A stretch of DNA of 57,772 nucleotides from Candidatus Magasanikiibacteriota bacterium (lineage in GTDB: Bacteria; Patescibacteriota; Patescibacteriia; Magasanikbacterales; GWA2-37-8). Both the position numbers and the translations under genes were made by a program. Under the pieces are notes generated by a model. The model saw only the letters and a list, made by a program, of their open reading frames with translations, was not told the DNA's origin and searched no databases. The stretch's first letter is position 1; every line of letters starts with the position of its first letter. Of this stretch, positions 3,660 through 57,772 are shown piece after piece. The stretch covers positions 1 to 57,772 of the forward strand of contig JAGOQR010000001.1 of NCBI GenBank assembly GCA_017991415.1. Reading direction: 5' to 3'.

Positions 3660-4691
3660 TTATTTTATGTATTTTAGTAGCACCTTTTTATTATTTTTTG
3701 ATTGAATAAGTTTTTTGTTCAAGGGAAGTAGATCTTTTTTTAACGCTTCTTTATATGTAAACCAACCGTAATCCGAAGTTTCTGCGTCGGCAAATTGAAA
3801 TTTGCCAGATTTGATTTTACAAATATTCATGTATAAGTGAACTTGGTAGAGTTCCGATTTGCTGTTTACGGTCGTAGTCAAAATATCTGGCAGCTGCTCA
3901 ATTTTTGAAACACGATACCCTGTTTCTTCTCCCACCTCTCGGATAAGAGTCTCGTCAAAACTTTCTCCATTCTCTACTCCCCCACCTGGAAATTCCCATT
4001 TGTCATTAAATTCTGGACGGATATCACGGCGTTTGGTTAGTAGCATTTTGCCATCTTTTACAATAATACCTGCGGCACAAATGACCTGTTGTGATTGATA
4101 GTTTTTTGTTAAGAAATATTTAACTTGTAAAACCATCTTTCCTCTATGGCTAATACGATTTTTTTCTAAAGTATTCATTTCTGAAAAAACTTTTTTGAGC
4201 GGTGGAAAATAAAAGATTGGGTCATAACCCATACTTTCTTTTGTTCCAGAACCTACTTGTTGAGTAATCTCACCCTCTGCTGTAGCGGTAAAAATTGAAA
4301 AATTATTGGTGTTTGGGTTGTAGAGACATCCAGATGTTTCAAAGTATGCCCCGCGTTTTTTCCCCGAAAAACCCCGCATCTTTTCTAGAATTATACTGTT
4401 TCTTTCTTTGGCTGTGGGCGCAAGGCGCTTTGAAGCTATTCCAGGCTCTCCGTTCAGAGCGTTGATAAATAAGCCAGTATCTTCGGCTAATGTGAGTAGT
4501 CCGCTTTTTTTAGCAAAAAATTTTGCCTTTTCTAAAGCGTTTTGCCAGGTAGTGGTATATGGCTCCTCAACCTCGAACTTATCTAGCTTAAGATCTTTGA
4601 GGCTTACAAATGCAAAATGAAGATCTGCTAGTTCGGCCATGATCTCGGCAAGTTTACCAGAATTGGTAGTAGCAATAAGAATTTTTTGCAT
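3660..4691 (-). CDS. fusion of RdgB/Ham1-type non-canonical purine NTP pyrophosphatase (N-terminal) and Nudix hydrolase (C-terminal)
   Basis: The N-terminal half has Ham1 motifs (ATTNSGKLAEI, AEDTGLFINALNGEPGI, GYDPIFYFP, EKNRISHRG). The C-terminal half has a Nudix box (GGGVENGESFDETLIREVGEETG). Confidence 0.8.
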   Translation of the reverse strand: MQKILIATTNSGKLAEIMAELADLHFAFVSLKDLKLDKFEVEEPYTTTWQNALEKAKFFAKKSGLLTLAEDTGLFINALNGEPGIASKRLAPTAKERNSIILEKMRGFSGKKRGAYFETSGCLYNPNTNNFSIFTATAEGEITQQVGSGTKESMGYDPIFYFPPLKKVFSEMNTLEKNRISHRGKMVLQVKYFLTKNYQSQQVICAAGIIVKDGKMLLTKRRDIRPEFNDKWEFPGGGVENGESFDETLIREVGEETGYRVSKIEQLPDILTTTVNSKSELYQVHLYMNICKIKSGKFQFADAETSDYGWFTYKEALKKDLLPLNKKLIQSKNNKKVLLKYIK

Positions 4692-20966: not shown

Positions 20967-22463
20967 CTATTTTTTAAACTGTCCGCATGCGTCTTTGAGT
21001 TCAGTTTCAATTTCTTTATCCCATTCCCCTGCTTCAATTTTGGCAAGCAGCGCTCCTTTTGATTTTTCCAAGAAGGCATGGAAACCATTCTCCCATTCTT
21101 TAATATCTTTTACAGCTACGTTATTGGTTAAGCCGTTGCTTACCGCATAAATAATGGCAACTTGTTGCGCAACGGAAACTGGTTGGTACTGAGGCTGTTT
21201 TAATACTTCCACTAATCGCTGGCCAAGATCAATTTGATTTTTAGTCTCTGCATCAAGATCACTTGAGAATTGAGCAAACGCTTCCATTTCACGGAACTGA
21301 GCCATAGCAAGTTTTAATTTACCAGCTACTTTTTTCATTGGCTTGATTTGAGCGGCACCACCAACACGAGACACAGAGATACCAACATTTAAAGCAGGAC
21401 GGATACCTTTATAGAACAAATCTGTTTCTAAGAAAATCTGACCATCGGTAATAGAAATTACGTTTGTTGGAATATAGGCAGAAATATCGCCAGCCTGAGT
21501 TTCGATAATAGGAAGTGCGGTAATAGAACCTCCGCCAGATTCTTTGTTGCGTCGGCAAGCACGTTCGAGTAAACGAGAATGCAAATAGAACACATCACCA
21601 GGATAAGCTTCGCGACCTGGAGGTCTGCGTAAAAGCAAAGAAATTTCTCGATATGCCCAAGCTTGCTTGGTCAAGTCATCGTAAACACACAAAACATCCT
21701 TGCCTTTGTCCATAAAGTATTCGGCCATTGCCACACCTGAATACGGAGCAATATAAGACATGGCGGCTGGCTGAGATGCGCCGGCTACAACTACAATTGT
21801 ATACTCCATTGCACCAGCTTCCTTTAGTTTGGCTACGATACGAGCCACTTTAGATTCTTTCTGACCCACAGCTACGTATACACAGATAATGTCTTTGCCT
21901 TTCTGGTTAATGATCGCATCAATTGCTACTGCAGTTTTACCCGTTTGACGGTCACCGATAATAAGCTCGCGTTGGCCACGACCAATTGGAATAAGCGCAT
22001 CGATAGCCTTAATACCAGTTTGAAGCGGCTGAGTTACCGGTTCTCTGGTCATTACCCCTGGCGCAACTTTTTCAATTGGATAAAATTTACCAGTTTTAAT
22101 TTCTTTGCCACCATCAATAGCTTGGCCTAACGGGTTTACAACACGGCCAACTAGCTCGTCTCCGACTGGTACAGATAAAATTCTACTTGTTCTTTTTACA
22201 ACATCACCCTCTTTGATATGTTTATACTCACCAAGCAACACACAACCTACTGTCTCTTCTTCAAGGTTTAAAGCCAAACCATAGGTAATATTGGCTCCAC
22301 TTCCAAATTCTAACATCTCACTTGCCTGACAATTACTAAGACCTGAAATACGAGCGATACCATCACCAATTTCAATAACTTTACCCGTTTCTTCTTTTTC
22401 AGTTTCTTTGTGAAAAGAAGCAATATTTTTTCTGATTTCTTCAACAATATTATTTGTGGACAT
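20967..22463 (-). CDS. atpA: F1 ATP synthase alpha subunit
   Basis: 498 aa with P-loop GDRQTGKT and overall alpha-subunit signature. Confidence 0.97.
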
Positions 22464-23905: not shown

Positions 23906-24694
23906 CTAATGCTTTTCTTTGGCATGGCCGTGTGGTTTGGTTGTTAATACGGTAAGGTATACCAGTGTTAACATCGTAAATACACTTGCCTGAATAATAC
24001 CTACTAAAATTTCTAACATCATAAATGGTGCTGGAACAAGCAAAGCGGCGATACTGCTTATTACAGAAATTAAAACTTCGCCAGCAAAAACATTTCCAAA
24101 TAATCTAAGTGACAGCGATAGTACTTTGGCCATTTCACTTACTATTTCGATAAGACCAACTGCTAATTCTACAATAGCGGTAAAAATTGCCACCGGGCCT
24201 TTGGTAAGACTTTTGAAAAAAGTACCAATCTGAACAAATTTATTTAAGTGGGTAAAAATACCTACCGTAAATAGACCAAAAATATGTGAGGCAACTACAG
24301 AAACAAGAGCCATAGCTACAGTAAGATTGAGGTCTGTATTGGCTGGACGAAGAAGCGGTGCTCCGCCTATAGTAATACTACCTGTGCCTGGTAAAAGACC
24401 GAGCCAGTTTGATAATAAGATAAAGAAAAAGAGGGAGCCGACAATTGGTAAAAATTGAATAGTCTTTTTACGGTCGCCTGTCACCTGATCGAAGTAAACA
24501 AATAATTTTTCTAAGAAGAATTCTATAAAATTTTGAATTTTGGTTGGTTTTAATTTTATTTTTTTTCTCAAAACAAGCCCGAGGATTAAAAAGATTCCTA
24601 TTGCTAACCATGTATTTATCATGGTGTTAGTAATAGGAAACTTTCCAATATGGAGTATGGTTTCTGGTGCAAGAGTTGGGATATGTAATTCCAT
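23906..24694 (-). CDS. atpB: Fo ATP synthase a subunit
   Basis: Polytopic protein with the conserved LSLSLRLFGNVFAGE region. I moved the start to ATG 24694 (MELHIPTL...) because the longer ORF, reaching 24841, overlaps atpI. Confidence 0.88.
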   Translation of the reverse strand: MELHIPTLAPETILHIGKFPITNTMINTWLAIGIFLILGLVLRKKIKLKPTKIQNFIEFFLEKLFVYFDQVTGDRKKTIQFLPIVGSLFFFILLSNWLGLLPGTGSITIGGAPLLRPANTDLNLTVAMALVSVVASHIFGLFTVGIFTHLNKFVQIGTFFKSLTKGPVAIFTAIVELAVGLIEIVSEMAKVLSLSLRLFGNVFAGEVLISVISSIAALLVPAPFMMLEILVGIIQASVFTMLTLVYLTVLTTKPHGHAKEKH

Positions 24695-24719
24695 AATCAC
24701 GAGTGGTAAATAAGAAAAT

Positions 24720-25004
24720 TTATTTATTTTTTTCTTCTGATCCTGGATTTTTCCCAGCATCATTAAGTTTTTTGTATTCTGCGCCGTATTCTTGAGCTTT
24801 TTTGTGAATAATTTTGGCAGAAATGAGTGCGGCGAAAACAAAACCTAAAATTGTAAATAACGGAGATGAATTACGTGTTTTGTCTGCGTACTGCCCTATC
24901 ATTACAAGAACCACCACTGGCACAGCGATAGAAGCACCAAAATTACTGATTATTTTGAGCGCTAAAATGTAATAGTCTCTGCTTGTTGGTTTCTGATTTT
25001 CCAT
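24720..25004 (-). CDS. atpI: AtpI/AtpZ-like small membrane protein
   Basis: Two-TM protein at the head of the atp operon. I placed the start at ATG 25004 (MENQKP...) because the predicted promoter's -10 ends 1 nt from the ATG at 25028. Confidence 0.55.
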   Translation of the reverse strand: MENQKPTSRDYYILALKIISNFGASIAVPVVVLVMIGQYADKTRNSSPLFTILGFVFAALISAKIIHKKAQEYGAEYKKLNDAGKNPGSEEKNK

Positions 25005-25029
25005 ATAACAATTAACAAAGAACGCCATT

Positions 25030-25058
25030 ATTTTACATATTTTTTTTCATAAAGTCAA
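25030..25058 (-). promoter_or_regulatory. sigma70-type promoter of the atp operon
   Basis: The minus strand reads TTGACT, a 17-nt spacer, then TAAAAT. Confidence 0.6.
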
Positions 25059-25077
25059 CCCCTCCCAAAAATTCTTG

Positions 25078-25106
25078 TTGACAAAATTTTTTATATACTG
25101 CTTAAT
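25078..25106 (+). promoter_or_regulatory. candidate promoter P1 of island ORF1, divergent from the atp promoter
   Basis: TTGACA (25078-25083), a 17-nt spacer, then CTTAAT (25101-25106). Confidence 0.4.
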
Positions 25107-25135
25107 GAACTAAATTTATCAAGGAGCTGTTGGCT

Positions 25136-25378
25136 ATGCCCGTAAAAAAACGGCGTCCAAAAGCTTCTTTTGATACTACTCAAGAAGCTCCACTGCCCCC
25201 GGCTACCCCAGAGGTTCTGCCAGAAGAGGAGCCTTTTGACTTGGCAGCAGAGGCTGCCGCGCTCATTCCCCAAGCCACTCAACGGCTTTTTCCACCTGAT
25301 ACTGTTACGACAGAGACAAAATACCAAGATCTCTATCAAGTAGCTGCAGGCAGAGTCTGGCCAAAGCTCAAGCCGTAG
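25136..25378 (+). CDS. island ORF1: 80-aa Pro/Ala/Glu-rich hypothetical protein
   Basis: AAGGAG lies 9 nt upstream of ATG 25136. The ORF has intermediate GC, reads MPVKKRRPKASFDTTQEAPLPPATPEVLPEEEPFDL..., and has no recognisable motif. Confidence 0.4.
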   Translation: MPVKKRRPKASFDTTQEAPLPPATPEVLPEEEPFDLAAEAAALIPQATQRLFPPDTVTTETKYQDLYQVAAGRVWPKLKP

Positions 25379-25429
25379 AGAAGAACAATCTGGCCGCTTT
25401 GGGCGTTTGCGAAAATAACGCCCCCAAAC

Positions 25430-25459
25430 AAAAATAGCTTTTTCAAGGCTATTTTTGTT
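25430..25459 (+). terminator. AT-rich intrinsic terminator after ORF1
   Basis: AAAATAGC pairs with GCTATTTT around a 9-nt loop and is followed by a TGTTT run. A GGGCGTT/AACGCCC hairpin lies upstream at 25400-25422. Confidence 0.45.
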
Positions 25460-25526
25460 TATGTGGATTTATTTTGGCTAATTATACATAAAAATAGACT
25501 AATCATAAGTATTTAGTCTAGAAAGT

Positions 25527-25555
25527 ATTGACAAAAAGAGGTTTATGAGATATAT
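25527..25555 (+). promoter_or_regulatory. candidate promoter P2 of island ORF2
   Basis: TTGACA (25527-25532), a 17-nt spacer, then TATATT (25550-25555). Confidence 0.55.
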
Positions 25556-25586
25556 TGAGTTGTTCTTTAACAAATTACAGTAGTCT

Positions 25587-25623
25587 AGGGGAAATAAAGC
25601 GTTATCTTAGCGCTTTATTTCCC
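25587..25623 (+). promoter_or_regulatory. perfect 14-bp stem-loop in the ORF2 leader
   Basis: GGGGAAATAAAGCG, loop ttatcttag, CGCTTTATTTCCCC. It lies between P2 and the AAGGAGG site and has no U-tract after it. Confidence 0.6.
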
Positions 25624-25704
25624 CTTAGGTTACTCAAACCAATTCCCGTGCACCCCAAGGGGAGCACACACACCAATTTCACTGGCCAAGGAGGCAAAAT
25701 CCCG

Positions 25705-26256
25705 ATGGAGCACGTGATTGTTAACACTACCCATGGAAACTCCCGTGGGTACAGCCGTGTCGCCCTGTGTAAGCGCAGACTAGGCTGTTGTAGAGAAGGG
25801 TCTCACTTCCATGTGGAGAACTACTCGAGCGCTAGCGCTCGGAGTCCGTTCTCTCAGTCGGGTCCCTTCACCTGCTGTGACGACGCATTCGACGAGATCC
25901 AAGAAGCCCCGTGCGCGACGCGCGAACAGCAGATGCAGGCCGTTCTGGATGCGATGAACGCGGGCACCCTCCCGTTGAAGGAGGATGACCTCGACCGAAT
26001 CTTCAACGAGCCTGAGAATGGCTTCATGGTGGCTGAGGGTATGGAAAAGCTCGCCTCCATTCACGAGCTCTTGATGATGGAGAAGCTCTACGATGCGGCT
26101 CCTACCGACAAGCTCGTCGCCACGGAAGAAGTCGTCGGTGTGACCGACGACGATGACGACGGCTTCCCGGAGATCTCCGTCGAAGAACCTCCTCCCGTCC
26201 GCCGTCGAAACCCGCAGCCCGCGATCACCGCGAGCGGCGAGATCAGCGCCAGCTGA
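25705..26256 (+). CDS. island ORF2: 183-aa acidic hypothetical protein (high GC)
   Basis: AAGGAGG lies 10 nt upstream of ATG 25705, and third codon positions are strongly G/C in this frame. The sequence reads MEHVIVNTTHG...DDDDDGFPEISVEEPPPVRRRNPQP..., with no recognisable motif. Confidence 0.6.
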   Translation: MEHVIVNTTHGNSRGYSRVALCKRRLGCCREGSHFHVENYSSASARSPFSQSGPFTCCDDAFDEIQEAPCATREQQMQAVLDAMNAGTLPLKEDDLDRIFNEPENGFMVAEGMEKLASIHELLMMEKLYDAAPTDKLVATEEVVGVTDDDDDGFPEISVEEPPPVRRRNPQPAITASGEISAS

Positions 26257-26262
26257 TGGAAC

Positions 26263-26284
26263 GAGCTGCAATACGTTGCAGCTC
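26263..26284 (+). other. 9-bp stem with tetraloop immediately after the ORF2 stop
   Basis: GAGCTGCAA, loop tacg, TTGCAGCTC. Confidence 0.5.
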
Positions 26285-26315
26285 AAGAAGCCAGTGCTCG
26301 GTGAACAAGAAGTAC

Positions 26316-26383
26316 AAGTTCGCCGTCGCACAATCTTTGTAAAAGATACTTTGATATCATATACAAAGATTGGCGGCGAACTT
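26316..26383 (+). other. 68-nt interrupted hairpin (10 + 11 bp) spanning the GC-rich to AT-rich transition
   Basis: AAGTTCGCCG pairs with CGGCGAACTT, and CAATCTTTGTA pairs with TACAAAGATTG. The 20-nt apical loop contains TGATATCA. Confidence 0.5.
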
Positions 26384-26406
26384 CGTTAAAGAACAAAACA
26401 TATAAC

Positions 26407-26440
26407 AAAAAACTACGTTTAAACACGTGGTTTTTTGTTT
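26407..26440 (+). terminator. intrinsic terminator (A-tract, stem, U-tract; potentially bidirectional)
   Basis: AAAAAACTACGT, loop ttaaac, ACGTGGTTTTTT, forming 12 bp including one G-U pair. Confidence 0.6.
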
Positions 26441-26451
26441 GCTTACGAGTA

Positions 26452-26480
26452 TTGACTTTTTAGCTAAAATATAGTAAGTT
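26452..26480 (+). promoter_or_regulatory. candidate promoter P3 of island ORF3 (leaderless geometry)
   Basis: TTGACT (26452-26457), a 17-nt spacer, then TAAGTT (26475-26480). ATG 26487 lies 7 nt after the -10 element. Confidence 0.35.
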
Positions 26481-26486
26481 TTTTTT

Positions 26487-26663
26487 ATGCAAAAACGCAA
26501 ACCAAGCTCTTTCATGAAACTCTGCGATGACATGTTCGTCGCGGGAACGCTCTTCGGTGGCGCGGTCATGGAGATCGCGCTCAAGAAGTGGGACGCCTGG
26601 AGGGCAAACAAGGATCGCCATCGCCGCGTCGTCCGCAACAAGTACCCCCAGCACCACTCCTAA
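26487..26663 (+). CDS. island ORF3: 58-aa small protein with one hydrophobic stretch and a basic tail, below the ORF-track cutoff
   Basis: Hand translation gives MQKRKPSSFMKLCDDMFVAGTLFGGAVMEIALKKWDAWRANKDRHRRVVRNKYPQHHS*. G/C is enriched at third codon positions. Confidence 0.4.
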   Translation: MQKRKPSSFMKLCDDMFVAGTLFGGAVMEIALKKWDAWRANKDRHRRVVRNKYPQHHS

Positions 26664-26689
26664 CGTGGGCCAGTAGCCCTCATGCCAGT

Positions 26690-26709
26690 GAGAAGTCAAC
26701 CGACTTCTC
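26690..26709 (+). other. 8-bp hairpin downstream of ORF3
   Basis: GAGAAGTC, loop aacc, GACTTCTC. A T-run follows at about 26757-26770. Confidence 0.4.
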
Positions 26710-26827
26710 GACCGTACGACCTCACAGTGCCGCCAGCGGCCAACGAGGTTGTGCGGGTTTTTTATTTTTATTTGATTACTATTTTTAAATATGTTAGCCT
26801 TAAATCCAAAGGGAGGCACTTCCAGCT

Positions 26828-27046
26828 ATGATCGGCAAACTTCTCTCCAAGGTCGGAATCCTCAAAGAGTTCTACGATCTCCTTACTCCGACGATGATTG
26901 CTCAGATCATCTTCGGAACAATTCTCTCGCTGAGCTTGCTGGCTGGTATGATCGCGACCATACCCTTCAGCCTACCGCTCTTCCTGGGCTACATCTTGCT
27001 GGAGTACTACCGACAAGACAAGGGGGCGCTTCGCTCGTACGTCTGA
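26828..27046 (+). CDS. island ORF4: 72-aa two-TM small membrane protein
   Basis: GGGAGG lies 11 nt upstream of the ATG. The protein reads MIGKLLSKVGILKEFYDLLTPTMIAQIIFGTILSLSLLAGMIATIPFSLPLFLGYILLEYYRQDKGALRSYV, with G/C-rich third codon positions. Confidence 0.6.
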   Translation: MIGKLLSKVGILKEFYDLLTPTMIAQIIFGTILSLSLLAGMIATIPFSLPLFLGYILLEYYRQDKGALRSYV

Positions 27047-27112
27047 AGACACTTCCATGGTCTACCCAAGCTGCAACCACACGTCGCGGCCACGGCCTGG
27101 ACACTTCGGCTT

Positions 27113-27143
27113 GCTCTGCCAACACTGGCAGAGCGCTTTTTTT
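27113..27143 (+). terminator. canonical rho-independent terminator closing island 1
   Basis: GCTCTGCCA, loop acac, TGGCAGAGC, followed by GCTTTTTTT. The T-run abuts the tatD stop codon. Confidence 0.8.
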
Positions 27144-27996
27144 AAAGTGAAATATTAAATAATTTTTGAGCGTTTTGAGTAGTCGCTACTTCGGCATCTA
27201 AAAAAGAAATATTTTTTAATTCGGCAATTTTTCTAATGGTATGTTCTACCATAGGCGGTTCACACCGCTGTCCTCTAAATGGAATTGGCGCCAAATATGG
27301 TGAGTCTGTTTCTACGACGATTCTTTCTAAAGGAATGTTTTTTACAGCTTCAAGTAAATCTGTCTGATTTTGCGGATTACTTTTTTTGGGAGGAAATGTT
27401 ATTACGCCAGTAAATCCAATGCATAGCCCTAGATCTAAATATTGCTTGGCAAAAAACCAATTACCTGTATAGCAATGCACGGTGCCGCGAACAGATTTAT
27501 TACCATACTCTGCCATTAACTCTTTAAGCAAATCTATCATTTCTTGATGAGCTTCACGGACATGAATTACCAAAGCAACGCCCAACTCTTGGGCTAATTT
27601 ATATTGTAGTGTAAAAGTTTTTTTCTGCTTCTCTAAGACTTCTTCAACGGTTTTGCCTTCAGGCAACCGATATAAATCGAGTCCGCACTCCCCCACTGCA
27701 ATTACTTTTTTGCTTTGCCCTAATTTTTTATAATACTCATAATCAAAATCTTCCTCTCTGGACAAAAAACTACTCTCTTCTTCGTCAATATGAGTAGAAA
27801 ATAAATGGACGGGATGCAAGCCGATACTGGCGTAGGTAAACGGAAATCGTTCGGCCATCTCTACCCCTGCTCGACTTGTATCTTTTTGAGTACCAACCAG
27901 ATTTAAGATCATGTTTTTTTCTCCGCATTTTTTCACTACTTCTTCGGCATCATTTTTGAAACCATTAAATTGAACATGGCAATGAGTGTCAAACAT
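27142..27996 (-). CDS. tatD: TatD-family metal-dependent hydrolase/DNase
   Basis: 284 aa with N-terminal MFDTHCHVQF (HxH) and the conserved GECGLD, H.R. and ETDSPY motifs. Confidence 0.9.
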   Translation of the reverse strand: MFDTHCHVQFNGFKNDAEEVVKKCGEKNMILNLVGTQKDTSRAGVEMAERFPFTYASIGLHPVHLFSTHIDEEESSFLSREEDFDYEYYKKLGQSKKVIAVGECGLDLYRLPEGKTVEEVLEKQKKTFTLQYKLAQELGVALVIHVREAHQEMIDLLKELMAEYGNKSVRGTVHCYTGNWFFAKQYLDLGLCIGFTGVITFPPKKSNPQNQTDLLEAVKNIPLERIVVETDSPYLAPIPFRGQRCEPPMVEHTIRKIAELKNISFLDAEVATTQNAQKLFNISL

Positions 27997-28003
27997 AAAA
28001 AAA

Positions 28004-28528
28004 CTATAATAGATTATCTACAGTGCTATGCAAAATTCTGAGGGCTTCTGGGAACAGAGGGATTAATATAGAAGCAAAACGGACAAGTGGTGGCGCAACG
28101 TGAGACTGAGCTAAACCTTCCATAAAAGGAAGGCTAATAGGAAAACGAGCAATAAAAAATAGCGAAATACCAATAACGACTGCTCCCTCAAGCAAACCAA
28201 AGACAAAACCCAAAATTCTATCTATACCGCTTAAAAATGGCAGTCTTGTAAAGATGGAGAGTATTTTTTCGAGTAGCCAAAAAACAAAGCCAACAAGTCT
28301 GGTAATTAATAAAAAGGAAACTATAAAGACAATTACCTTAACATGGTTTTGACTCCAGCCAGAGAATCCTATGACCCAATTTGCCAAAGGTTCGTAGTAG
28401 CGGCTTGCAACATAAACACCAACCACTGTGCCGATAAGCGAACCAATAGTACGCACCAGTCCAAACCAAAGGCCGAACAAACCAAAACCAGCAATAAGAA
28501 CGAGAAGCGATATGTCAAAAATAGACAT
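28004..28528 (-). CDS. cvpA: CvpA-family membrane protein
   Basis: 174 aa with 4 TM helices. The size and N-terminal pattern (DISLLVLIAGFGLFGLWFGLVR) are typical of CvpA. Confidence 0.6.
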   Translation of the reverse strand: MSIFDISLLVLIAGFGLFGLWFGLVRTIGSLIGTVVGVYVASRYYEPLANWVIGFSGWSQNHVKVIVFIVSFLLITRLVGFVFWLLEKILSIFTRLPFLSGIDRILGFVFGLLEGAVVIGISLFFIARFPISLPFMEGLAQSHVAPPLVRFASILIPLFPEALRILHSTVDNLL

Positions 28529-28544
28529 AAAGGTTATGAATTAA

Positions 28545-30074
28545 TTATTGTAAACGAGGAAATAGTTGTTCTGGCTTAGCAATTTTGTTGCCTACTGTTA
28601 ATTGTACCCAATTTTGAAGTTCTGATAAAGGTTTTGCTAGTTCGGTAGATACAGTAAGGCCTAGTTGAACTAATAATTTTTCTGAAGTCTCTGGCATTAT
28701 TGGCCAAATCATTATGGCAATATGGCGCAGACTCTCTGCTAAGTGGTGCAACATATTTTTTACCTCTGTTTCTTTTCCATTTTTCATCATTGCCCACGGT
28801 TGCTTGTCCGAAATCATTTGGTCGCAATAAGAAATAAATTTCCAAATATTTTCTAAGGCACGATCAAAACGCCAAGCTTCCATTGCGCTGGCATAATCAC
28901 CGTATATATTTTTAGCAAAGGCTACTATTTCATTATTTATTTCTGTAGTTTCGGGAATAACGCTGTCACAATATTTTTCAATCATGACCGTAATGCGGTT
29001 GGTAAGGTTACCCAAACCATTGGCCAAGTCTGCCTGGTAACGTTCGTTAAATTTAACATAAGAAAAATCACCATCGTTATCGAATTGAATTTCGCGCATT
29101 AAGAAATATCGGACAGCCTCTAGAGGATATTTTTTTACGAGCTCTAGCGGATCAATAACATTGCCTACGCTCTTGCTCATCTTTTGACCGTCTACGGTTA
29201 TCCAACCATGCACGGCAATTTGTTTTGGCAGAGCTACTCCAGCCGACATAAGCATGGCTGGCCATAATAACGAATGAAAGCGATTAATTTCTTTGCCAAT
29301 TACATGGGCATCGGCAGGCCAAAATGTATCAAACAAGGTTTCGTTACTGGCACCCCAACCCAACGCGGTAATATAATTGGTAAGTGCATCAAACCAAACA
29401 TACATCACTTGCGCACCATCATCTGGAACTGGCACTCCCCACGGTAATTTTTCTTTAACACGAGAAATACTTACGTCTTCTAAGCCGTTTTTAAGAATAT
29501 TTTTCATTTCTTTAAAACGATGTTCTGGATACACAAAGTTTGGATTTTGTTCAAATAGCAACTCTATTGGTTTTTGGTATTTTGAAAGTTTAAAGAAATA
29601 ATTTTCTTCGGATAGAGTCTCTGGTACTTTGTTATGATCTGGACATTTACCATCTACCAAATCTGTTTCAAGTTTAAACGATTCGCAACCAACGCAATAG
29701 AGCCCTGTATAACTTTTTTTATAGATATCCCCCACTGCCAATGATTTTTTCCAAAACTCTTGCGCAGATTTCATGTGACGATCTTCGGTTGTACGGATAA
29801 AATCATTGTTGGAAATATTCCACTCATCGGCCAATCGCAAAAACTGTGCTGATTTTTCGGCAGCATATTCTTCAACAGATTTACCTACCTCTTTGGCAGT
29901 TTTTAACATTTTTTGCCCGTGCTCATCGGTGCCAGTTAAAAAATAAACATCTTTGCCAAGCAAGCGCTGGTAGCGAGCCATTACATCGGTATATAAAATT
30001 TCTAAGGCAAAACCAATATGCGGATCGGCATTGGCGTATGGAATGGCGGTGGTGAGGTAATATGTTTGTTTCAT
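28545..30074 (-). CDS. metG: methionyl-tRNA synthetase
   Basis: I moved the start to ATG 30074 (MKQTYYLTTAIPYANADPHIGFA, a HIGH-type motif). A KMSKS motif is present (QKMSKSVGN). Confidence 0.93.
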   Translation of the reverse strand: MKQTYYLTTAIPYANADPHIGFALEILYTDVMARYQRLLGKDVYFLTGTDEHGQKMLKTAKEVGKSVEEYAAEKSAQFLRLADEWNISNNDFIRTTEDRHMKSAQEFWKKSLAVGDIYKKSYTGLYCVGCESFKLETDLVDGKCPDHNKVPETLSEENYFFKLSKYQKPIELLFEQNPNFVYPEHRFKEMKNILKNGLEDVSISRVKEKLPWGVPVPDDGAQVMYVWFDALTNYITALGWGASNETLFDTFWPADAHVIGKEINRFHSLLWPAMLMSAGVALPKQIAVHGWITVDGQKMSKSVGNVIDPLELVKKYPLEAVRYFLMREIQFDNDGDFSYVKFNERYQADLANGLGNLTNRITVMIEKYCDSVIPETTEINNEIVAFAKNIYGDYASAMEAWRFDRALENIWKFISYCDQMISDKQPWAMMKNGKETEVKNMLHHLAESLRHIAIMIWPIMPETSEKLLVQLGLTVSTELAKPLSELQNWVQLTVGNKIAKPEQLFPRLQ

Positions 30075-34740: not shown

Positions 34741-34769
34741 TTGACTTATAGATAAAAAAAGATTATAAA
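34741..34769 (+). promoter_or_regulatory. sigma70-type promoter of the ribH-like gene
   Basis: TTGACT, a 17-nt spacer, then TATAAA, ending 29 nt upstream of ATG 34798. Confidence 0.55.
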
Positions 34770-54868: not shown

Positions 54869-54953
54869 GCTAGGCAGATAAATCTGTCTATTTTTATTCG
54901 CTACAATGTAGCGGACACTTGAGACAGACTTTTTTATTATATAGAAATTTTTA

Positions 54954-55000
54954 TCGGAGAAGAGCTGCCGACACGACCTGCAATCTCCGATCTTCTCCGA
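54954..55000 (-). other. 3' hairpin downstream of paralog 1 (9-bp stem, 29-nt loop)
   Basis: TCGGAGAAG pairs with CTTCTCCGA. An equivalent structure follows paralog 2. Confidence 0.45.
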
Positions 55001-55027
55001 CACCAGATAACCCCTTCCCAACCATCA

Positions 55028-55702
55028 CTACGATGGCGGCACAACGACGACCTCTACCCACGCTTGGTACAACGCTGCACCATCTGCACAGGCGATCGTA
55101 AGTCGAGCCAGCTGCGGTTGAGCGATGGACATCTGCATGGTGTGGGATGGCGAAGGGTAGCTACCCGTCAAACCACCGCCCATACCAGTACAGTACATTC
55201 CGCTCCCAATATCATCCGGCGCGTTGTAGTGCAGGTTGAAGGCGATGCCTGCAATCGCTTGCATGGGAGCGTCGAGCTCCAACGCGTACACGCGGAACGT
55301 GGCCATCACATCCTCGGTACCGGGCGGACCCGAACAAACGAGGGTGTAGTCGGTGAGACCACCGATCGGCGACACCACGATGCGACCCGAGAGCCGAGTT
55401 CCCTGGATCGTGGTCGCGAGCGGCCCGTTCCAGTCGAGCACCGACGCACCATGGTTGGTGGTGCCAGTACACGAAGCGGCGTTCTCGACCTCGAAGACCA
55501 GCGTGGTCTCGGGGTGGTTCGCCCGGAGGTTGGACGTCGGCTCCAACCCGAAGCTCAGCAAGCTGAGCGGGGGCGGAGGGGCGTCGATGGGGGTAGGCTT
55601 GGCATCAACTGCCATAGCAACCTCATCAAGACCGAACACCTGATTGCAACCGACACTCGCAACAGTAGCGAGCATCACCACAAACAGTTTGATAACGTTC
55701 AT
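55028..55702 (-). CDS. high-GC secreted lipoprotein, paralog 1 (two Cys-pair beta-sandwich-like modules)
   Basis: 224 aa with signal peptide and candidate lipobox MNVIKLFVVMLATVASVGC. GAGG lies 8 nt upstream of the ATG, and third codon positions are G/C-rich. Confidence 0.75.
   Translation of the reverse strand: MNVIKLFVVMLATVASVGCNQVFGLDEVAMAVDAKPTPIDAPPPPLSLLSFGLEPTSNLRANHPETTLVFEVENAASCTGTTNHGASVLDWNGPLATTIQGTRLSGRIVVSPIGGLTDYTLVCSGPPGTEDVMATFRVYALELDAPMQAIAGIAFNLHYNAPDDIGSGMYCTGMGGGLTGSYPSPSHTMQMSIAQPQLARLTIACADGAALYQAWVEVVVVPPS
55211..55593. repeat. 383-nt block identical to 56147-56529 except for one 6-nt patch
   Basis: Base-by-base comparison at a constant offset of 936 nt. The only differences are GGCCAT (55301-55306) versus CCCAGT (56237-56242). 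Confidence 0.95.
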
Positions 55703-55769
55703 CGAAAGACCTCGGGGTTTATGTAGAGCATACGCGTTATGCGCACACTTCGGACTCTTTATTATCGTC

Positions 55770-55800
55770 CTAAATGTAATAATTTTTTTATTACATTTAG
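55770..55800. promoter_or_regulatory. perfect 11-bp inverted repeat upstream of paralog 1 (operator-like)
   Basis: CTAAATGTAAT, loop aattttttt, ATTACATTTAG. It lies 68-98 nt upstream of ATG 55702 in a spacer of about 15% GC. Confidence 0.45.
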
Positions 55801-55884
55801 AAAGACAATTAATATTTTTAAATTTTTATTTAATCAGTCATCTATTTTACTACCATTTATATATTGATAGTAAAAATTTATGAC

Positions 55885-55931
55885 AGGAGAAGCGCGCCGC
55901 TACAACAACCACAATCTCTGCTGCTTCTCCT
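55885..55931 (-). other. 3' hairpin downstream of paralog 2 (9-bp stem, 29-nt loop)
   Basis: AGGAGAAGC pairs with GCTTCTCCT. The geometry matches 54954-55000, but the stem ends differ while still pairing. Confidence 0.45.
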
Positions 55932-55963
55932 CGCCTCGATCTCTCGAGGGCTTCGGTTGCCAC

Positions 55964-56662
55964 CTACGATGGCGGCACGATGCTTACCTGGACCCAGGCG
56001 CGGTACATGACTGCGCCATCGGTACAGGTGATAGTGAACGTGACTAGTTGCGGTGACGACACCGACACCTGCATGGTGTGCGAGGGTGAAGGGTAGCTAC
56101 CCGACAGGCCGCCACCAGTTCCTACGCACCGATCTCCTGAACGAACATCATCCGGCGCGTTGTAGTGCAGGTTGAAGGCGATGCCTGCAATCGCTTGCAT
56201 GGGAGCGTCGAGCTCCAACGCGTACACGCGGAACGTCCCAGTCACATCCTCGGTACCGGGCGGACCCGAACAAACGAGGGTGTAGTCGGTGAGACCACCG
56301 ATCGGCGACACCACGATGCGACCCGAGAGCCGAGTTCCCTGGATCGTGGTCGCGAGCGGCCCGTTCCAGTCGAGCACCGACGCACCATGGTTGGTGGTGC
56401 CAGTACACGAAGCGGCGTTCTCGACCTCGAAGACCAGCGTGGTCTCGGGGTGGTTCGCCCGGAGGTTGGACGTCGGCTCCAACCCGAAGCTCAGCAAGCT
56501 GAGCGGGGGCGGAGGGGCGTCGATGGGGGCGTCGACGATCAGGGTATCGGGCGGGGGTGAGCCATCCGAATCGATCGAAGCGTCGACATCTTCTGCCCCG
56601 CGCGGCTCGAAGGCACAGGCCGTGAGAAGCATGGCGAAAATCAGAACAGGAAATGAGCGCAT
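55964..56662 (-). CDS. high-GC secreted lipoprotein, paralog 2
   Basis: 232 aa with signal peptide and lipobox MRSFPVLIFAMLLTAC. The central 128 codons are identical to paralog 1 apart from two codons. Confidence 0.78.
   Translation of the reverse strand: MRSFPVLIFAMLLTACAFEPRGAEDVDASIDSDGSPPPDTLIVDAPIDAPPPPLSLLSFGLEPTSNLRANHPETTLVFEVENAASCTGTTNHGASVLDWNGPLATTIQGTRLSGRIVVSPIGGLTDYTLVCSGPPGTEDVTGTFRVYALELDAPMQAIAGIAFNLHYNAPDDVRSGDRCVGTGGGLSGSYPSPSHTMQVSVSSPQLVTFTITCTDGAVMYRAWVQVSIVPPS
56147..56529. repeat. second copy of the 383-nt near-identical block
   Basis: See 55211-55593. Confidence 0.95.
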
Positions 56663-56748
56663 GATCCCTCGTGAGCAAAACCACTATGGTTTGCTAGTTA
56701 TGACCCTAAGGGCCGTGAAATTGTCGAGAGGCAAGTAGTTCTTACTGC

Positions 56749-56787
56749 CCTAAATCTAACAAGGAAGTTTTCATTGTGAAATTTAGG
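56749..56787. promoter_or_regulatory. inverted repeat CCTAAAT...ATTTAGG upstream of paralog 2
   Basis: 7-bp arms with the same CTAAAT/ATTTAG core as 55770-55800. It lies 87-125 nt upstream of ATG 56662. Confidence 0.35.
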
Positions 56788-56893
56788 ATGATAAAAATAA
56801 TTTAATTGTATTGTACTATACTTTGCTTAAATTCGAAATTAGATTTTACAACTGATCATTCCCCTATTTTTCAATAAGAAAATAATTTATTGT

Positions 56894-56931
56894 GTGCGGA
56901 TGTTCTCTCTTCTCTGAGAGAACATCCGCAC
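56894..56931 (-). terminator. perfect 16-bp hairpin downstream of the repeat-protein gene
   Basis: GTGCGGATGTTCTCTC, loop ttctct, GAGAGAACATCCGCAC. It lies 88 nt past the stop at 57019, with a weak U-rich tail on the minus strand. Confidence 0.55.
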
Positions 56932-57018
56932 TGGCCTCATGTCGCTTGCCCTTGATTCACATCAATGGTGTTGCAGACATTTCCGATTTTGATGAGGTTC
57001 GGAAGAACCATGGTCGAC

Positions 57019-57772
57019 CTACAGCGTCGGGTCGTCCGGCAGGTTGTTCTTGCCGTCGAAGCTGCACTTCGTCACCCCGGTGTACTCCTTGAAGGAGAGG
57101 GTGCCGTTGCCACCGTAGTACTCGATGGTGCAGTCGAACGGTTGCGCCGAGATCACCGAGCACGCGCCAGCCTGGGGAACCCAGGCATACGAAGCAGTGA
57201 TCGGTACCGAGCCGAGGTCGGGAGCCGGCTGAACACCGCCCCACCCACCCCAAGCGTTGAGCATGTCGGTCAGCGCGCTCGTGCGGCGAGTCTTGATTCC
57301 ACCGCAGTTGATGGCTCGCTGCTTGCACACACCAGCCGAACAGTAGCCTTGCGTCCAGGTGTAGGACGCGGGGCACTGGCTATCCATGCTGCACATGGCG
57401 GACGGCGAAGCCAGCGTGACGACCTCCGAGTCCGAAGCGGACCCGCTGGTACCCGTGCAGTTCACCGTGAAGGTGTTCTGCCCGACCGTGCTCACCGTGA
57501 CGGTGACCGAGCCGGAGGTACCGACCGAACCCGTGATCCAGTTCGCGGTGCAGCCGTTGACGTTGTTCGTCATCCAGCTGACCGTGACGGGACCGGGAGC
57601 GGAGAGGTTGTTCGTGCTGACCGTGACGTTCACGGACGGCGTGAGCGGCGAAGCCAGCGTGACGACCTCCGAGTCCGAAGCGGACCCGCTGGTACCCGTG
57701 CAGTTCACCGTGAAGGTGTTCTGCCCGACCGTGCTCACCGTGACGGTGACCGAGCCGGAGGTACCGACCGAA
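57019..57772 (-). CDS. high-GC repeat-containing secreted protein, 5'-truncated by the window edge (Ig-like 81-aa modules plus a Cys-rich C-terminal domain)
   Basis: The frame stays open to the window end. The track's 'M' at 57738 is an internal GTG inside a repeat. Modules have the pattern ...GCTANWITGSVGTSGSVTVTVSTVGQNTFTVNCTGTSGSASDSEVVTLASP. The C-terminal domain has 9 Cys. Confidence 0.75.
   Translation of the reverse strand, partial: SVGTSGSVTVTVSTVGQNTFTVNCTGTSGSASDSEVVTLASPLTPSVNVTVSTNNLSAPGPVTVSWMTNNVNGCTANWITGSVGTSGSVTVTVSTVGQNTFTVNCTGTSGSASDSEVVTLASPSAMCSMDSQCPASYTWTQGYCSAGVCKQRAINCGGIKTRRTSALTDMLNAWGGWGGVQPAPDLGSVPITASYAWVPQAGACSVISAQPFDCTIEYYGGNGTLSFKEYTGVTKCSFDGKNNLPDDPTL
57403..57772. 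repeat. tandem coding repeat, period 243 nt
   Basis: 57403-57529 (127 nt) is identical to 57646-57772. The second copy runs off the window. Confidence 0.9.

Follow-up and report, generated by a model that had tools for sequence, protein, structure and literature searches.

GC-rich orphan genes on conserved AT-rich control elements between atpI and tatD in a Candidatus Magasanikiibacteriota bacterium

We analyzed a stretch of 57,772 nucleotides (the window) from a Candidatus Magasanikiibacteriota bacterium (assembly GCA_017991415.1, contig JAGOQR010000001.1, positions 1 to 57,772 of the forward strand), in which the spacer between atpI and tatD carries four small open reading frames (ORF1 to ORF4) on the plus strand. 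These ORFs oppose the housekeeping genes of both flanks, which lie on the minus strand (atpI followed by the other atp genes at one end, tatD, cvpA and metG at the opposite end); the identities of AtpI and TatD were confirmed by their Pfam domains. The guanine plus cytosine (GC) content of the whole window is 38.3%, and the locus consists of four GC-rich blocks separated by spacers of 23-35% GC. A preliminary description of the window, made from its letters alone, had taken the locus for a set of individually expressed, domesticated foreign cassettes. The coordinates of all features are collected in Table 1.

GC at the first, second and third codon positions (GC1/GC2/GC3) was 0.62/0.44/0.73 in ORF2, 0.54/0.39/0.78 in ORF3 and 0.49/0.34/0.73 in ORF4. 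The 47 host genes of the window have a GC3 of 0.305±0.036 with a maximum of 0.379, and ORF2 to ORF4 therefore lie more than 11 standard deviations (SD) out. ORF1 has a GC3 of only 0.40, which is mildly raised, and a GC1 of 0.68; its GC-richness results from its proline, alanine and glutamate content and not from codon choice. Thus, the excess of G and C at third positions that had been ascribed to the plus-strand frames in general is real for ORF2 to ORF4, as profiling of GC and GC3 against the window genes confirmed, but not for ORF1. The hand counts given with that claim were exact (23/60 G+C at 24001-24060 and 37/60 at 26101-26160). The relative synonymous codon usage (RSCU) of ORF2 to ORF4 correlated with that of a second GC-rich island at the end of the window (54951-57772; r = 0.80) and was anti-correlated with that of the host genes (r = -0.48), whereas the codon use of ORF1 was weakly host-like (r = 0.33). 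The match between the two islands is in keeping with descent from one GC-rich source or with one process acting on both.

Related loci and contigs are labelled L001 to L026 here, and P0001 denotes an ORF2 protein allele. A TatD search retrieved 13 related metagenome-assembled genomes (L001-L013), all of them with the order metG-cvpA-tatD-gap-atpI-atpB-atpE. The gap measured 98 bp in L013 and 378-3458 bp in the others; its content was different in L002-L012, and among these 13 relatives GC-rich blocks were found in the gap only in the closest ones (L001-L004). The same GC-rich blocks recurred between tatD and atpI in over 10 assemblies made independently from different samples (Logan, ENA, NCBI and JGI), and a motif search with the scaffold of control elements described below added one further locus, from a JGI metagenome. 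Because both blocks and junctions were reproduced more than 10 times independently, an assembly chimera is excluded, as the preliminary description had argued. Neutral divergence from the window was estimated at fourfold degenerate sites of tatD with the Jukes-Cantor correction (dS) and was 0 for L014, 0.48 for L016, 1.1 for L023, 1.5 for L001 and 1.7 for L026. The GC3 of the island ORFs stayed at 0.58-0.82 across these five relatives, the lone exception being ORF4b of L026 (0.44). The relatives' ORFs are thus GC-rich and not of the ordinary AT-rich composition that an unremarkable conserved locus would show. Taken together, these comparisons indicate an old, lineage-restricted accessory locus that has been inherited vertically.

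None of the four products carried a nameable motif, as had been stated before, and searches of Pfam, PHROG, PADLOC, NCBIfam and PDB gave 0 matches. Relatives of ORF2 numbered five among 5.8 billion proteins, every one in the tatD-atpI gap, and an exhaustive hidden Markov model search with the ORF2 alignment over 1.84 billion representatives returned four proteins, all from this locus. ORF1 has only four known relatives, which are of the same lineage and match the ORF1 copies at the locus in L014, L016 and L022. Protein database searches gave no homologue of ORF1 or ORF2 outside the lineage, phage and plasmid collections held no relative of any of the four ORFs as DNA or protein, and viral contigs contained nothing related to ORF2; 16 matches to the 17-mer GAGTTGTTCTTTAACAA from the ORF2 unit did occur in viral contigs, but they came without the scaffold and were set aside as chance. 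The window contains no tRNA, no mobility domain by Pfam or PHROG and no meaningful PHROG match, and no direct repeats flank the locus. An origin from alternative or antisense frames of known genes was rejected, as Pfam and NCBIfam found nothing in the other frames, and so was movement of cassettes between sites, as the gap ORFs of the relatives matched nothing in the window and the proteins of the second island matched no other loci. A literature search on GC-rich islets in reduced genomes found nothing relevant. As judged from these searches, the four ORFs are orphans, and the high-GC host or phage that had been suggested as donor did not come to light.

We considered whether the ORFs are foreign cassettes of recent acquisition, which would have come into the spacer from a phage or a bacterium of high GC and taken up host signals there. 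Their GC3, their codon use, which runs against that of the host and matches the second island, and a site that is empty in L013 and otherwise filled in L002-L012 would all agree with such an origin. However, ORF2, the scaffold and the positional ORF3 and ORF4 units are common to L016 and L023 at a neutral dS of 0.5-1.1, and at 1.5-1.7 (L001 and L026) the scaffold is kept with unrelated ORFs in place of ORF2 and ORF4. The restriction of ORF1 and ORF2 to the lineage and the absence, in the searches above, of a phage or plasmid match for any of the four and of an integrase, tRNA or direct repeats also speak against it. A recent date is contradicted by the locus being shared at deep neutral divergence, and we regard this explanation as improbable. 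The same comparison upholds the earlier statement that a single recent transfer would not account for the locus, since locus and control elements are common to species at a tatD dS of 0.5-1.7.

The hexamers and ribosome-binding sites quoted in the preliminary description were all found in place by exact pattern match, and the native promoters with which it compared them do have the same form (atp, TTGACT-17-TAAAAT, minus strand, 25058-25030, by scan; ribH, TTGACT-17-TATAAA at 34741, by exact match). Its hairpins or terminators after ORF1, ORF2 and ORF4 were also present (25426-25460, 26404-26439, and 27112-27135 followed by a T-run). The number of promoter- and terminator-like sites in the region was not enriched over shuffled sequences (3 found versus 2.3 and 3.0 expected); these sites carry weight because they are conserved in the relatives and not by their count. 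Both hexamers of the ORF1 promoter-like site are kept in L014 and L016, its -10 hexamer falling below the promoter-scan rule, and the hairpins 3' of ORF1 are kept in L016 and occur in L001 and L026 as well. The ORF2 promoter is identical in hexamers and spacing in L014, L016, L023, L001 and L026, and the 17-mer at the predicted start of transcription was unchanged in 7/7 distinct sequences. In the leader of ORF2, a consensus fold (RNAalifold) preserved three pairs despite changes in both strands of the stem, and alignment columns 1-90 showed 63-76% identity to L023, L001 and L026, although the tatD dS of these relatives is 1.1-1.7.

The 3' side of the ORF2 unit behaved similarly. The small hairpin after the stop codon, GCTGCAA/TTGCAGC in the window, is GCTGCGA/TCGCAGC in L014, L016 and L017, a compensatory change from an A-T to a G-C pair, and the outer stem GTTCGCCG/CGGCGAAC of the long 3' hairpin is replaced by GTTCACCG/CGGTGAAC in L023 and by GTTCGTCG/CGACGAAC in L026, compensated on both sides. 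The bidirectional terminator-like hairpin is kept in the relatives with two compensated pairs (RNAalifold). Part of the 17-mer is the left arm of an inverted repeat whose 12-mer occurs exactly twice in the window, once at each end of the ORF2 unit; the two arms pair in both the minimum free energy (MFE) and the centroid fold predicted for the 886-nt ORF2 transcript, but only 9/12 nt of the right arm are retained in L023. This pair could be an RNA clamp between the 5' and 3' ends, the seed of a small RNA derived from the 3' untranslated region (UTR), or a palindromic operator (TTGTT-N4-AACAA) present twice. An invertible segment between the 12-nt repeats was rejected, as all of the more than 10 assemblies have the same orientation.

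Downstream, the leaderless geometry of ORF3 (TTGACT-17-TAnnnT or CATATA, with the ATG 6-7 nt on) also occurs in L016, L023, L001, L026 and L002. No convincing promoter hexamers were found in the spacer upstream of ORF4 (26766-26827); the stretch 26755-26815 is nearly identical in L016, and ATGTTAGCCT from the spacer is also present in L023. The terminator next to the tatD stop codon is kept in L016. Taken together, these data indicate three to four separate small transcription units, as predicted from their signals, whose control elements, with promoters of the sigma-70 type, are native in kind, AT-rich and under purifying selection. The proposal that the units are individually expressed is thus in keeping with promoters, leaders and terminators that are conserved, and more so than the ORFs.

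Table 1. Predicted features of the atpI-tatD locus and of the second GC-rich island (positions in the window)
Feature	Position	Strand	Remarks
atpI	24720-25028	minus	PF09527
GC-rich block	25126-25425		GC fraction 0.52
GC-rich block	25626-26325		GC fraction 0.58
GC-rich block	26501-26775		GC fraction 0.57
GC-rich block	26876-27150		GC fraction 0.55
ORF1 promoter-like site	25078-25106	plus	TTGACA-17-CTTAAT, exact match; back to back with the minus-strand atp promoter
ORF1 ribosome-binding site	25121	plus	AAGGAG
ORF1	25136-25378	plus	80 aa, Pro/Ala/Glu-rich, soluble, isoelectric point (pI) 5.3
Two hairpins 3' of ORF1	25399-25460		Second (25426-25460) an AT-rich bidirectional terminator-like palindrome, inverted repeat I3
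ORF2 promoter	25528-25556	plus	TTGACA-17-TATATT, 11/12 consensus positions (scan)
17-mer at predicted transcription start	25557-25573	plus	GAGTTGTTCTTTAACAA; includes left arm (25560-25571) of 12-nt inverted repeat
ORF2 5' leader	25579-25667	plus	Long hairpin (core 25587-25625, inverted repeat I1) and second hairpin (25648-25667)
ORF2 ribosome-binding site	25688	plus	AAGGAGG, 3' of the leader hairpins
ORF2	25705-26256	plus	183 aa, acidic, pI 4.5
Small hairpin directly 3' of ORF2 stop	26263-26284	plus	GCTGCAA/TTGCAGC
Long 3' hairpin of ORF2 unit	26318-26381	plus	GTTCGCCGTCGC...GGCGGCGAAC; RNAalifold
Right arm of 12-nt inverted repeat	26385-26396	plus	GTTAAAGAACAA; perfect complement of 25560-25571
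Bidirectional terminator-like hairpin after ORF2 unit	26404-26439		Inverted repeat I6
ORF3 promoter	26452-26480	plus	TTGACT-17-TAAGTT; ATG 6 nt past -10 (leaderless geometry)
ORF3	26487-26663	plus	58 aa, basic, pI 10.4, one weakly hydrophobic stretch
ORF3 GC-rich 3' region	26688-26765	plus	Hairpins and terminator (26736-26752 and T-run)
AT-rich spacer before ORF4	26766-26827	plus	GGGAGG at 26811
ORF4	26828-27046	plus	72 aa, predicted membrane protein, two hydrophobic helices (maximum KD19 2.22)
Intrinsic terminator adjoining tatD stop	27112-27145	plus	10-bp stem with 6 GC pairs, then CTTTTTTT
tatD	27142-27996	minus	PF01026
Island-2 ORF	55028-55702	minus
Island-2 ORF	55964-56662	minus
Island-2 ORF	57019 to past window end	minus

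The non-coding elements are in fact better conserved than the ORFs they bracket. The window, L014, L016, L022, L023, L001 and L026 have in common a scaffold that runs, in order, from TTGACA-17-TATATT through GAGTTGTTCTTTAACAA, the leader hairpin, the long 3' hairpin, GTTAAAGAACAA and the bidirectional terminator to the leaderless start of ORF3. Its identity to L001 and L026 is 72-76%, at saturated neutral sites. The ORF that these two relatives carry inside the scaffold (ORF2b, 100-131 aa) resembles ORF2 in none of six frames and is adjoined by homologous leader and 3' elements. Positional counterparts of ORF3 could not be aligned in L023, L026 and L001, nor could those of ORF4 in L001 and L026. 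We infer from these alignments that at least one ORF was replaced within a conserved scaffold, separating an ORF2 from an ORF2b clade.

The gap of L002 (1495-3758) has a similar layout with wholly different genes, four single-gene units with TTGAC-type promoters and GC-rich terminators; two of them encode secreted proteins with a GC3 of 0.74 and 0.87, and the other two are AT-typical. These may be stages of turnover at one site.

The ORFs themselves appear to be coding. In the comparison of the window with L016, substitutions at third/second/first codon positions were 72/4/12 in tatD, 37/12/19 in the N-terminal part of ORF2 and 16/6/10 in ORF3, a flatter distribution than in tatD that still favours third positions, and indels in the island ORFs were mostly multiples of three. 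The ratio of non-synonymous to synonymous divergence (dN/dS, Nei-Gojobori) was 0.41 in ORF1, 0.40 in ORF3 and 0.49 in ORF4, and ranged over 0.18-0.55 among parts of ORF2, compared with 0.03-0.05 for the neighbours tatD, atpB and cvpA. Protein identity between L016 and the window was 74% for ORF3 and 76% for ORF4. The ORF4 region is called in other frames elsewhere (119 aa on the plus strand in L014, 117 aa on the minus strand in L016), and codon-position substitutions support the 72-aa frame over the 119-aa one. ORF1 is invariably 80 aa long without indels in L014, L016 and L022. ORF2 has a conserved N-domain (residues 1 to about 100) with C22, C28, H34, H36, C57, C70 and the run HxHVxNYSSxSA, in which 36 residues are invariant in five alleles; a hypervariable, acidic, indel-rich segment (about 26020-26190) follows, and then a conserved tail, PPxRRRxxQPxIxxSGEI. 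AlphaFold2 gave a predicted local distance difference test score (pLDDT) of 40 for full ORF2 and 39 for the N-domain. Coding in the plus-strand frames is thus borne out by GC3 periodicity, by a dN/dS below 1 and by start codons and ribosome-binding sites that are conserved, and by these measures the four ORFs are real genes under weak purifying selection.

The stronger conservation of non-coding parts raises the alternative that the functional products are RNAs, for example a small RNA of the 3'UTR type. Such an RNA would comprise the long hairpin, the terminator and between them the AU-rich single strand GUUAAAGAACAA, and its target would be the 5' end of the mRNA from which it derives; the ORFs would then be incidental open frames. 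The compensatory pairs and the conserved perfect 12-nt complement would be expected if this were so, and GC-rich DNA tends to be open in several frames, as the disagreement of gene callers on ORF4 illustrates. However, an incidental ORF would not explain periodicity in the order GC3>GC1>GC2, third-position excess with dN/dS below 1, an ORF1 of exactly 80 aa, conserved translation signals or the invariant residues of the ORF2 N-domain. Rfam 15 gave 0 matches in the window and only chance-level ones (E >=0.17) in 24900-27300, and an RNA role of the UTRs would be compatible with coding anyway. We therefore consider this alternative very unlikely. We also rejected the idea that the GC-rich blocks stem from genes for structured RNAs, in view of the absence of Rfam and tRNA matches and of coding bodies that fold like host controls.

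Within the species, ORF1 and ORF2 are highly variable. The DNA of L014 is 100% identical to the window over 24308-25058 and 26276-28575, and the proteins encoded in between are 87.5% (ORF1) and 53% (ORF2) identical; the dS of ORF2 between the two, 0.88, is as deep as between species. L017-L021, which carry the P0001 allele, equal the window except at 26023-26260. In their middle segment the five ORF2 alleles are all far from one another (28-69% identity), ORF1 has at least two alleles within the species, and L019 and L021 combine the P0001 ORF2 with two different ORF1 alleles. The substitutions between alleles were mainly transitions, of all four kinds (C>T 10, A>G 8, G>A 8, T>C 6), with several indels of 3n; such an ordinary spectrum argues against retroelement mutagenesis. 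This pattern bears the signature of old, mosaic alleles reshuffled by homologous recombination, and balancing selection or repeated introgression may lie behind them. In atpB, the window departs from L014 by about 15 differences in a short patch, 24160-24300, within otherwise identical DNA (the AtpB protein is 99.7% identical), which looks like a small recombination tract.

A polymorphic ORF2 could also suggest a toxin-immunity or bacteriocin-type module, with ORF2 as effector and ORF3 and ORF4 for immunity or export. The conserved N-terminal and variable C-terminal layout of ORF2, its deep allelic divergence in identical backgrounds and the adjoining small membrane protein resemble such modules. 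However, strains that differ in their ORF2 allele (three alleles) have ORF3 and ORF4 in common at 100% identity; these two do not co-vary with ORF2 as cognate partners would, and the ORF1 alleles reassort. In addition, ORF2 is conserved at its very C-terminus, its variable part is low-complexity and acidic, and the four products showed no match to a toxin, immunity or defence family and no signal peptide or leader motif. This module is the explanation we find hardest to credit. As regards a type I toxin-antitoxin system, which pairs a small hydrophobic toxin with an overlapping or adjacent antisense RNA, ORF4 is hydrophobic at a length of 72 aa with two helices, and ORF3 is basic and only weakly hydrophobic. 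We would guess, with low confidence, that the products, with ORF2 as a largely disordered acidic protein, are niche or interaction factors aimed at a host, phage or competitor, a class that tolerates rapid change or is selected for it.

As for how the GC-richness arose and persisted, one possibility is that the genes are native and lineage-specific, and that their GC is kept high by GC-biased gene conversion at a recombination hot spot or by selection, jointly with the 5' and 3' hairpins, for mRNAs that resist RNases and last long. This would account for a GC3 that persists across a dS above 1 at a locus that clearly recombines, and the strong terminal hairpins, the 5'-3' complementarity and the folding of the whole ORF2 transcript at z = -10 would be in its favour. 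However, the z of -10 largely reflects mixed composition plus the UTR hairpins, and the coding bodies are no more structured than host controls (z of -2.4 to -2.8 for ORF2 versus -0.6 to -2.5). ORF4b of L026 has gone down to a GC3 of 0.44, and the process would need to act exactly on the ORFs and end where they end. Gene conversion affects GC3 in bacteria by a few percent, which also counts against it. We consider a native origin of this kind unlikely.

Import remains the simplest reading of the GC-richness, and a foreign origin is plausible because the codon use matches that of the second island. The explanation that best covers all observations, and which we hold to be probable by a small measure, is that coding payloads with foreign-type codon usage turn over on native-type, AT-rich control elements that are themselves selected. 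The payloads would have entered long ago from one or more GC-rich sources, or would keep entering from an unsampled pool; they would be expressed from the resident signals and exchanged by homologous recombination, for which the conserved scaffold would provide the homology arms. A eukaryotic or unsampled donor may be involved.

Several points weigh against this explanation. No donor, mobile-element gene, att site or tRNA in support of import was found in the databases or the window. By our own estimate from the tatD dS, one ancestral import should have ameliorated its GC3 more than is seen; the persistence of GC3 at the observed neutral divergence makes a single ancient import an insufficient account. 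A single event of ORF replacement is documented, and extreme remodelling in situ may be an alternative to it. The third positions of ORF2 gave 23 changes from G or C to A or T versus 5 in the reverse direction by singleton parsimony, but AT-rich host genes gave the mirror image (66 changes to G or C versus 13 to A or T), a common-to-rare artefact of parsimony; this test was dropped as evidence because of the bias seen in the host control. The word "foreign" in the preliminary description goes further than the results do: the searches gave no relative in a donor, a phage or a plasmid for any ORF, the locus has neither an integrase or tRNA nor repeats at its flanks, and ORF1 does not look foreign by codon use. 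"Domesticated cassettes" misses the main features, namely that ORF1 and ORF2 are hypervariable, with alleles that recombine, and that the scaffold persists longer than the ORFs it contains. On balance, what the preliminary description observed was confirmed, and its interpretation was upheld in about half.

We also propose, speculatively and as a rather unlikely extension, that the scaffold is a resident expression and landing platform that captures GC-rich foreign ORFs and swaps them through homologous recombination, an integrase-free counterpart of the integron that supplies the promoter. If true, this would explain at once orphans with foreign codons on native signals, alleles older than strains and an unrelated ORF in one clade. 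Two results, the turnover of coding payloads on fixed control elements and a GC3 of about 0.75 that has not decayed over saturated divergence in a genome of about 0.30, bear on the origin of bacterial orphan genes and on how foreign coding sequence becomes expressed, and each of them challenges the usual picture of import followed by amelioration. If the GC-richness is instead maintained, single genes would be subject to a force, whether selective or mutational, that has so far gone unrecognised. The allelic diversity of ORF2 may serve as a strain marker for an uncultured lineage, and the products are candidate interaction factors.

The second GC-rich region contains three minus-strand orphan ORFs (GC 0.60-0.65, GC3 0.72-0.87), each on AT-rich spacers with its own terminator hairpin, and two of them start with lipoprotein- or signal-peptide-like N-termini. 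Their proteins have only close relatives among 5.8 billion proteins. The two lipoprotein-like genes are paralogues and are 98% identical in a 300-nt core (55208-55507 versus 56144-56443) and about 72% identical at the ends, which suggests recent gene conversion. The third ORF contains a 127-nt direct repeat (57403-57529 and 57646-57772, 100% identical, spaced 243 nt) that encodes a repeated domain, and the window stops within the second copy. Within the atp operon, L016 has a 167-aa ORF without a Pfam match between atpG and atpA (4659-5162 of L016), which the window lacks (its atpG reaches to 20925 and its atpA begins at 20967), and 77 extra nt with a hairpin (AAAAAGTTAAA...TTTAACTTTTT) in the atpE-atpB spacer (at about 23785 of the window), absent from the window and L014. 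Elsewhere, a 343-aa protein (3660-4691, minus strand) joins an RdgB/HAM1-type NTP pyrophosphatase (residues 1-199) to a MutT/Nudix domain (201-331). Housekeeping proteins of the window score far below the NCBIfam equivalog cut-offs, and its ATP synthase beta subunit is no nearer to that of E. coli than to those of Firmicutes or mitochondria (PDB comparison).

Among known systems, phage morons are independent promoter-gene-terminator units inserted between conserved phage genes (PMC3594210). The locus resembles them in having one gene per unit with its own promoter and terminator, as predicted here from sequence, in a unit GC unlike that of the neighbours, and in lying between two conserved genes with absence from that position in some relatives. 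It differs in its setting, the space between tatD and the atp operon of a cellular chromosome and not a phage or prophage, with no phage genes or meaningful PHROG matches, in the vertical inheritance of the units across species and in control elements that outlast the ORFs. With integron arrays it shares a tandem row of small units, one gene in each, whose content varies while their site on the chromosome is fixed. However, no attC-like element is repeated at the unit ends, the sole exact long-range repeat being the 12-nt pair; the neighbours are housekeeping genes with no integrase or attI, each unit has its own promoter-like site, and exchange appears to proceed by homologous recombination. 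Diversity-generating retroelements likewise produce a localised hypervariable 3' gene segment among near-identical genomes, but were rejected here: substitutions were not adenine-specific, indels were present, and no template repeat was found in 24900-27300. No reverse transcriptase occurred among the annotated neighbours, the part of the genome to which this search was confined.

Multi-allelic or idiomorphic loci between conserved flanks are known, for example the agr and comC pherotype loci and capsule loci. As in these, the alleles at our locus are far older than the strains, have sharp breakpoints in identical DNA and are mosaic, and one clade has non-homologous sequence between conserved flanks. 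Here, in contrast, nothing links the locus to a known pathway for signalling or surface structures, the conserved flanks are untranslated regions that belong to the gene itself, and the codon-usage anomaly has no counterpart there. Of the features of classical genomic islands, atypical composition and patchy distribution were found, but not a mobility gene or integrase, a tRNA target, flanking direct repeats or homologues in a donor lineage, as the relatives of ORF1 and ORF2 are confined to this locus and the second island is similar in this respect. Finally, ORFans and genomic islets reportedly arise by horizontal transfer followed by amelioration, as Lawrence and Ochman in 1997 and Daubin and Ochman in 2004 are said to have described. 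Our ORFs are likewise short, lineage-restricted, fast-evolving, atypical in composition and patchy in presence. Bacterial ORFans are usually more AT-rich than their own genome, whereas the island ORFs are far more GC-rich than theirs and stay so over saturated neutral divergence, with a compositional boundary that tracks each ORF at a sub-kilobase scale.

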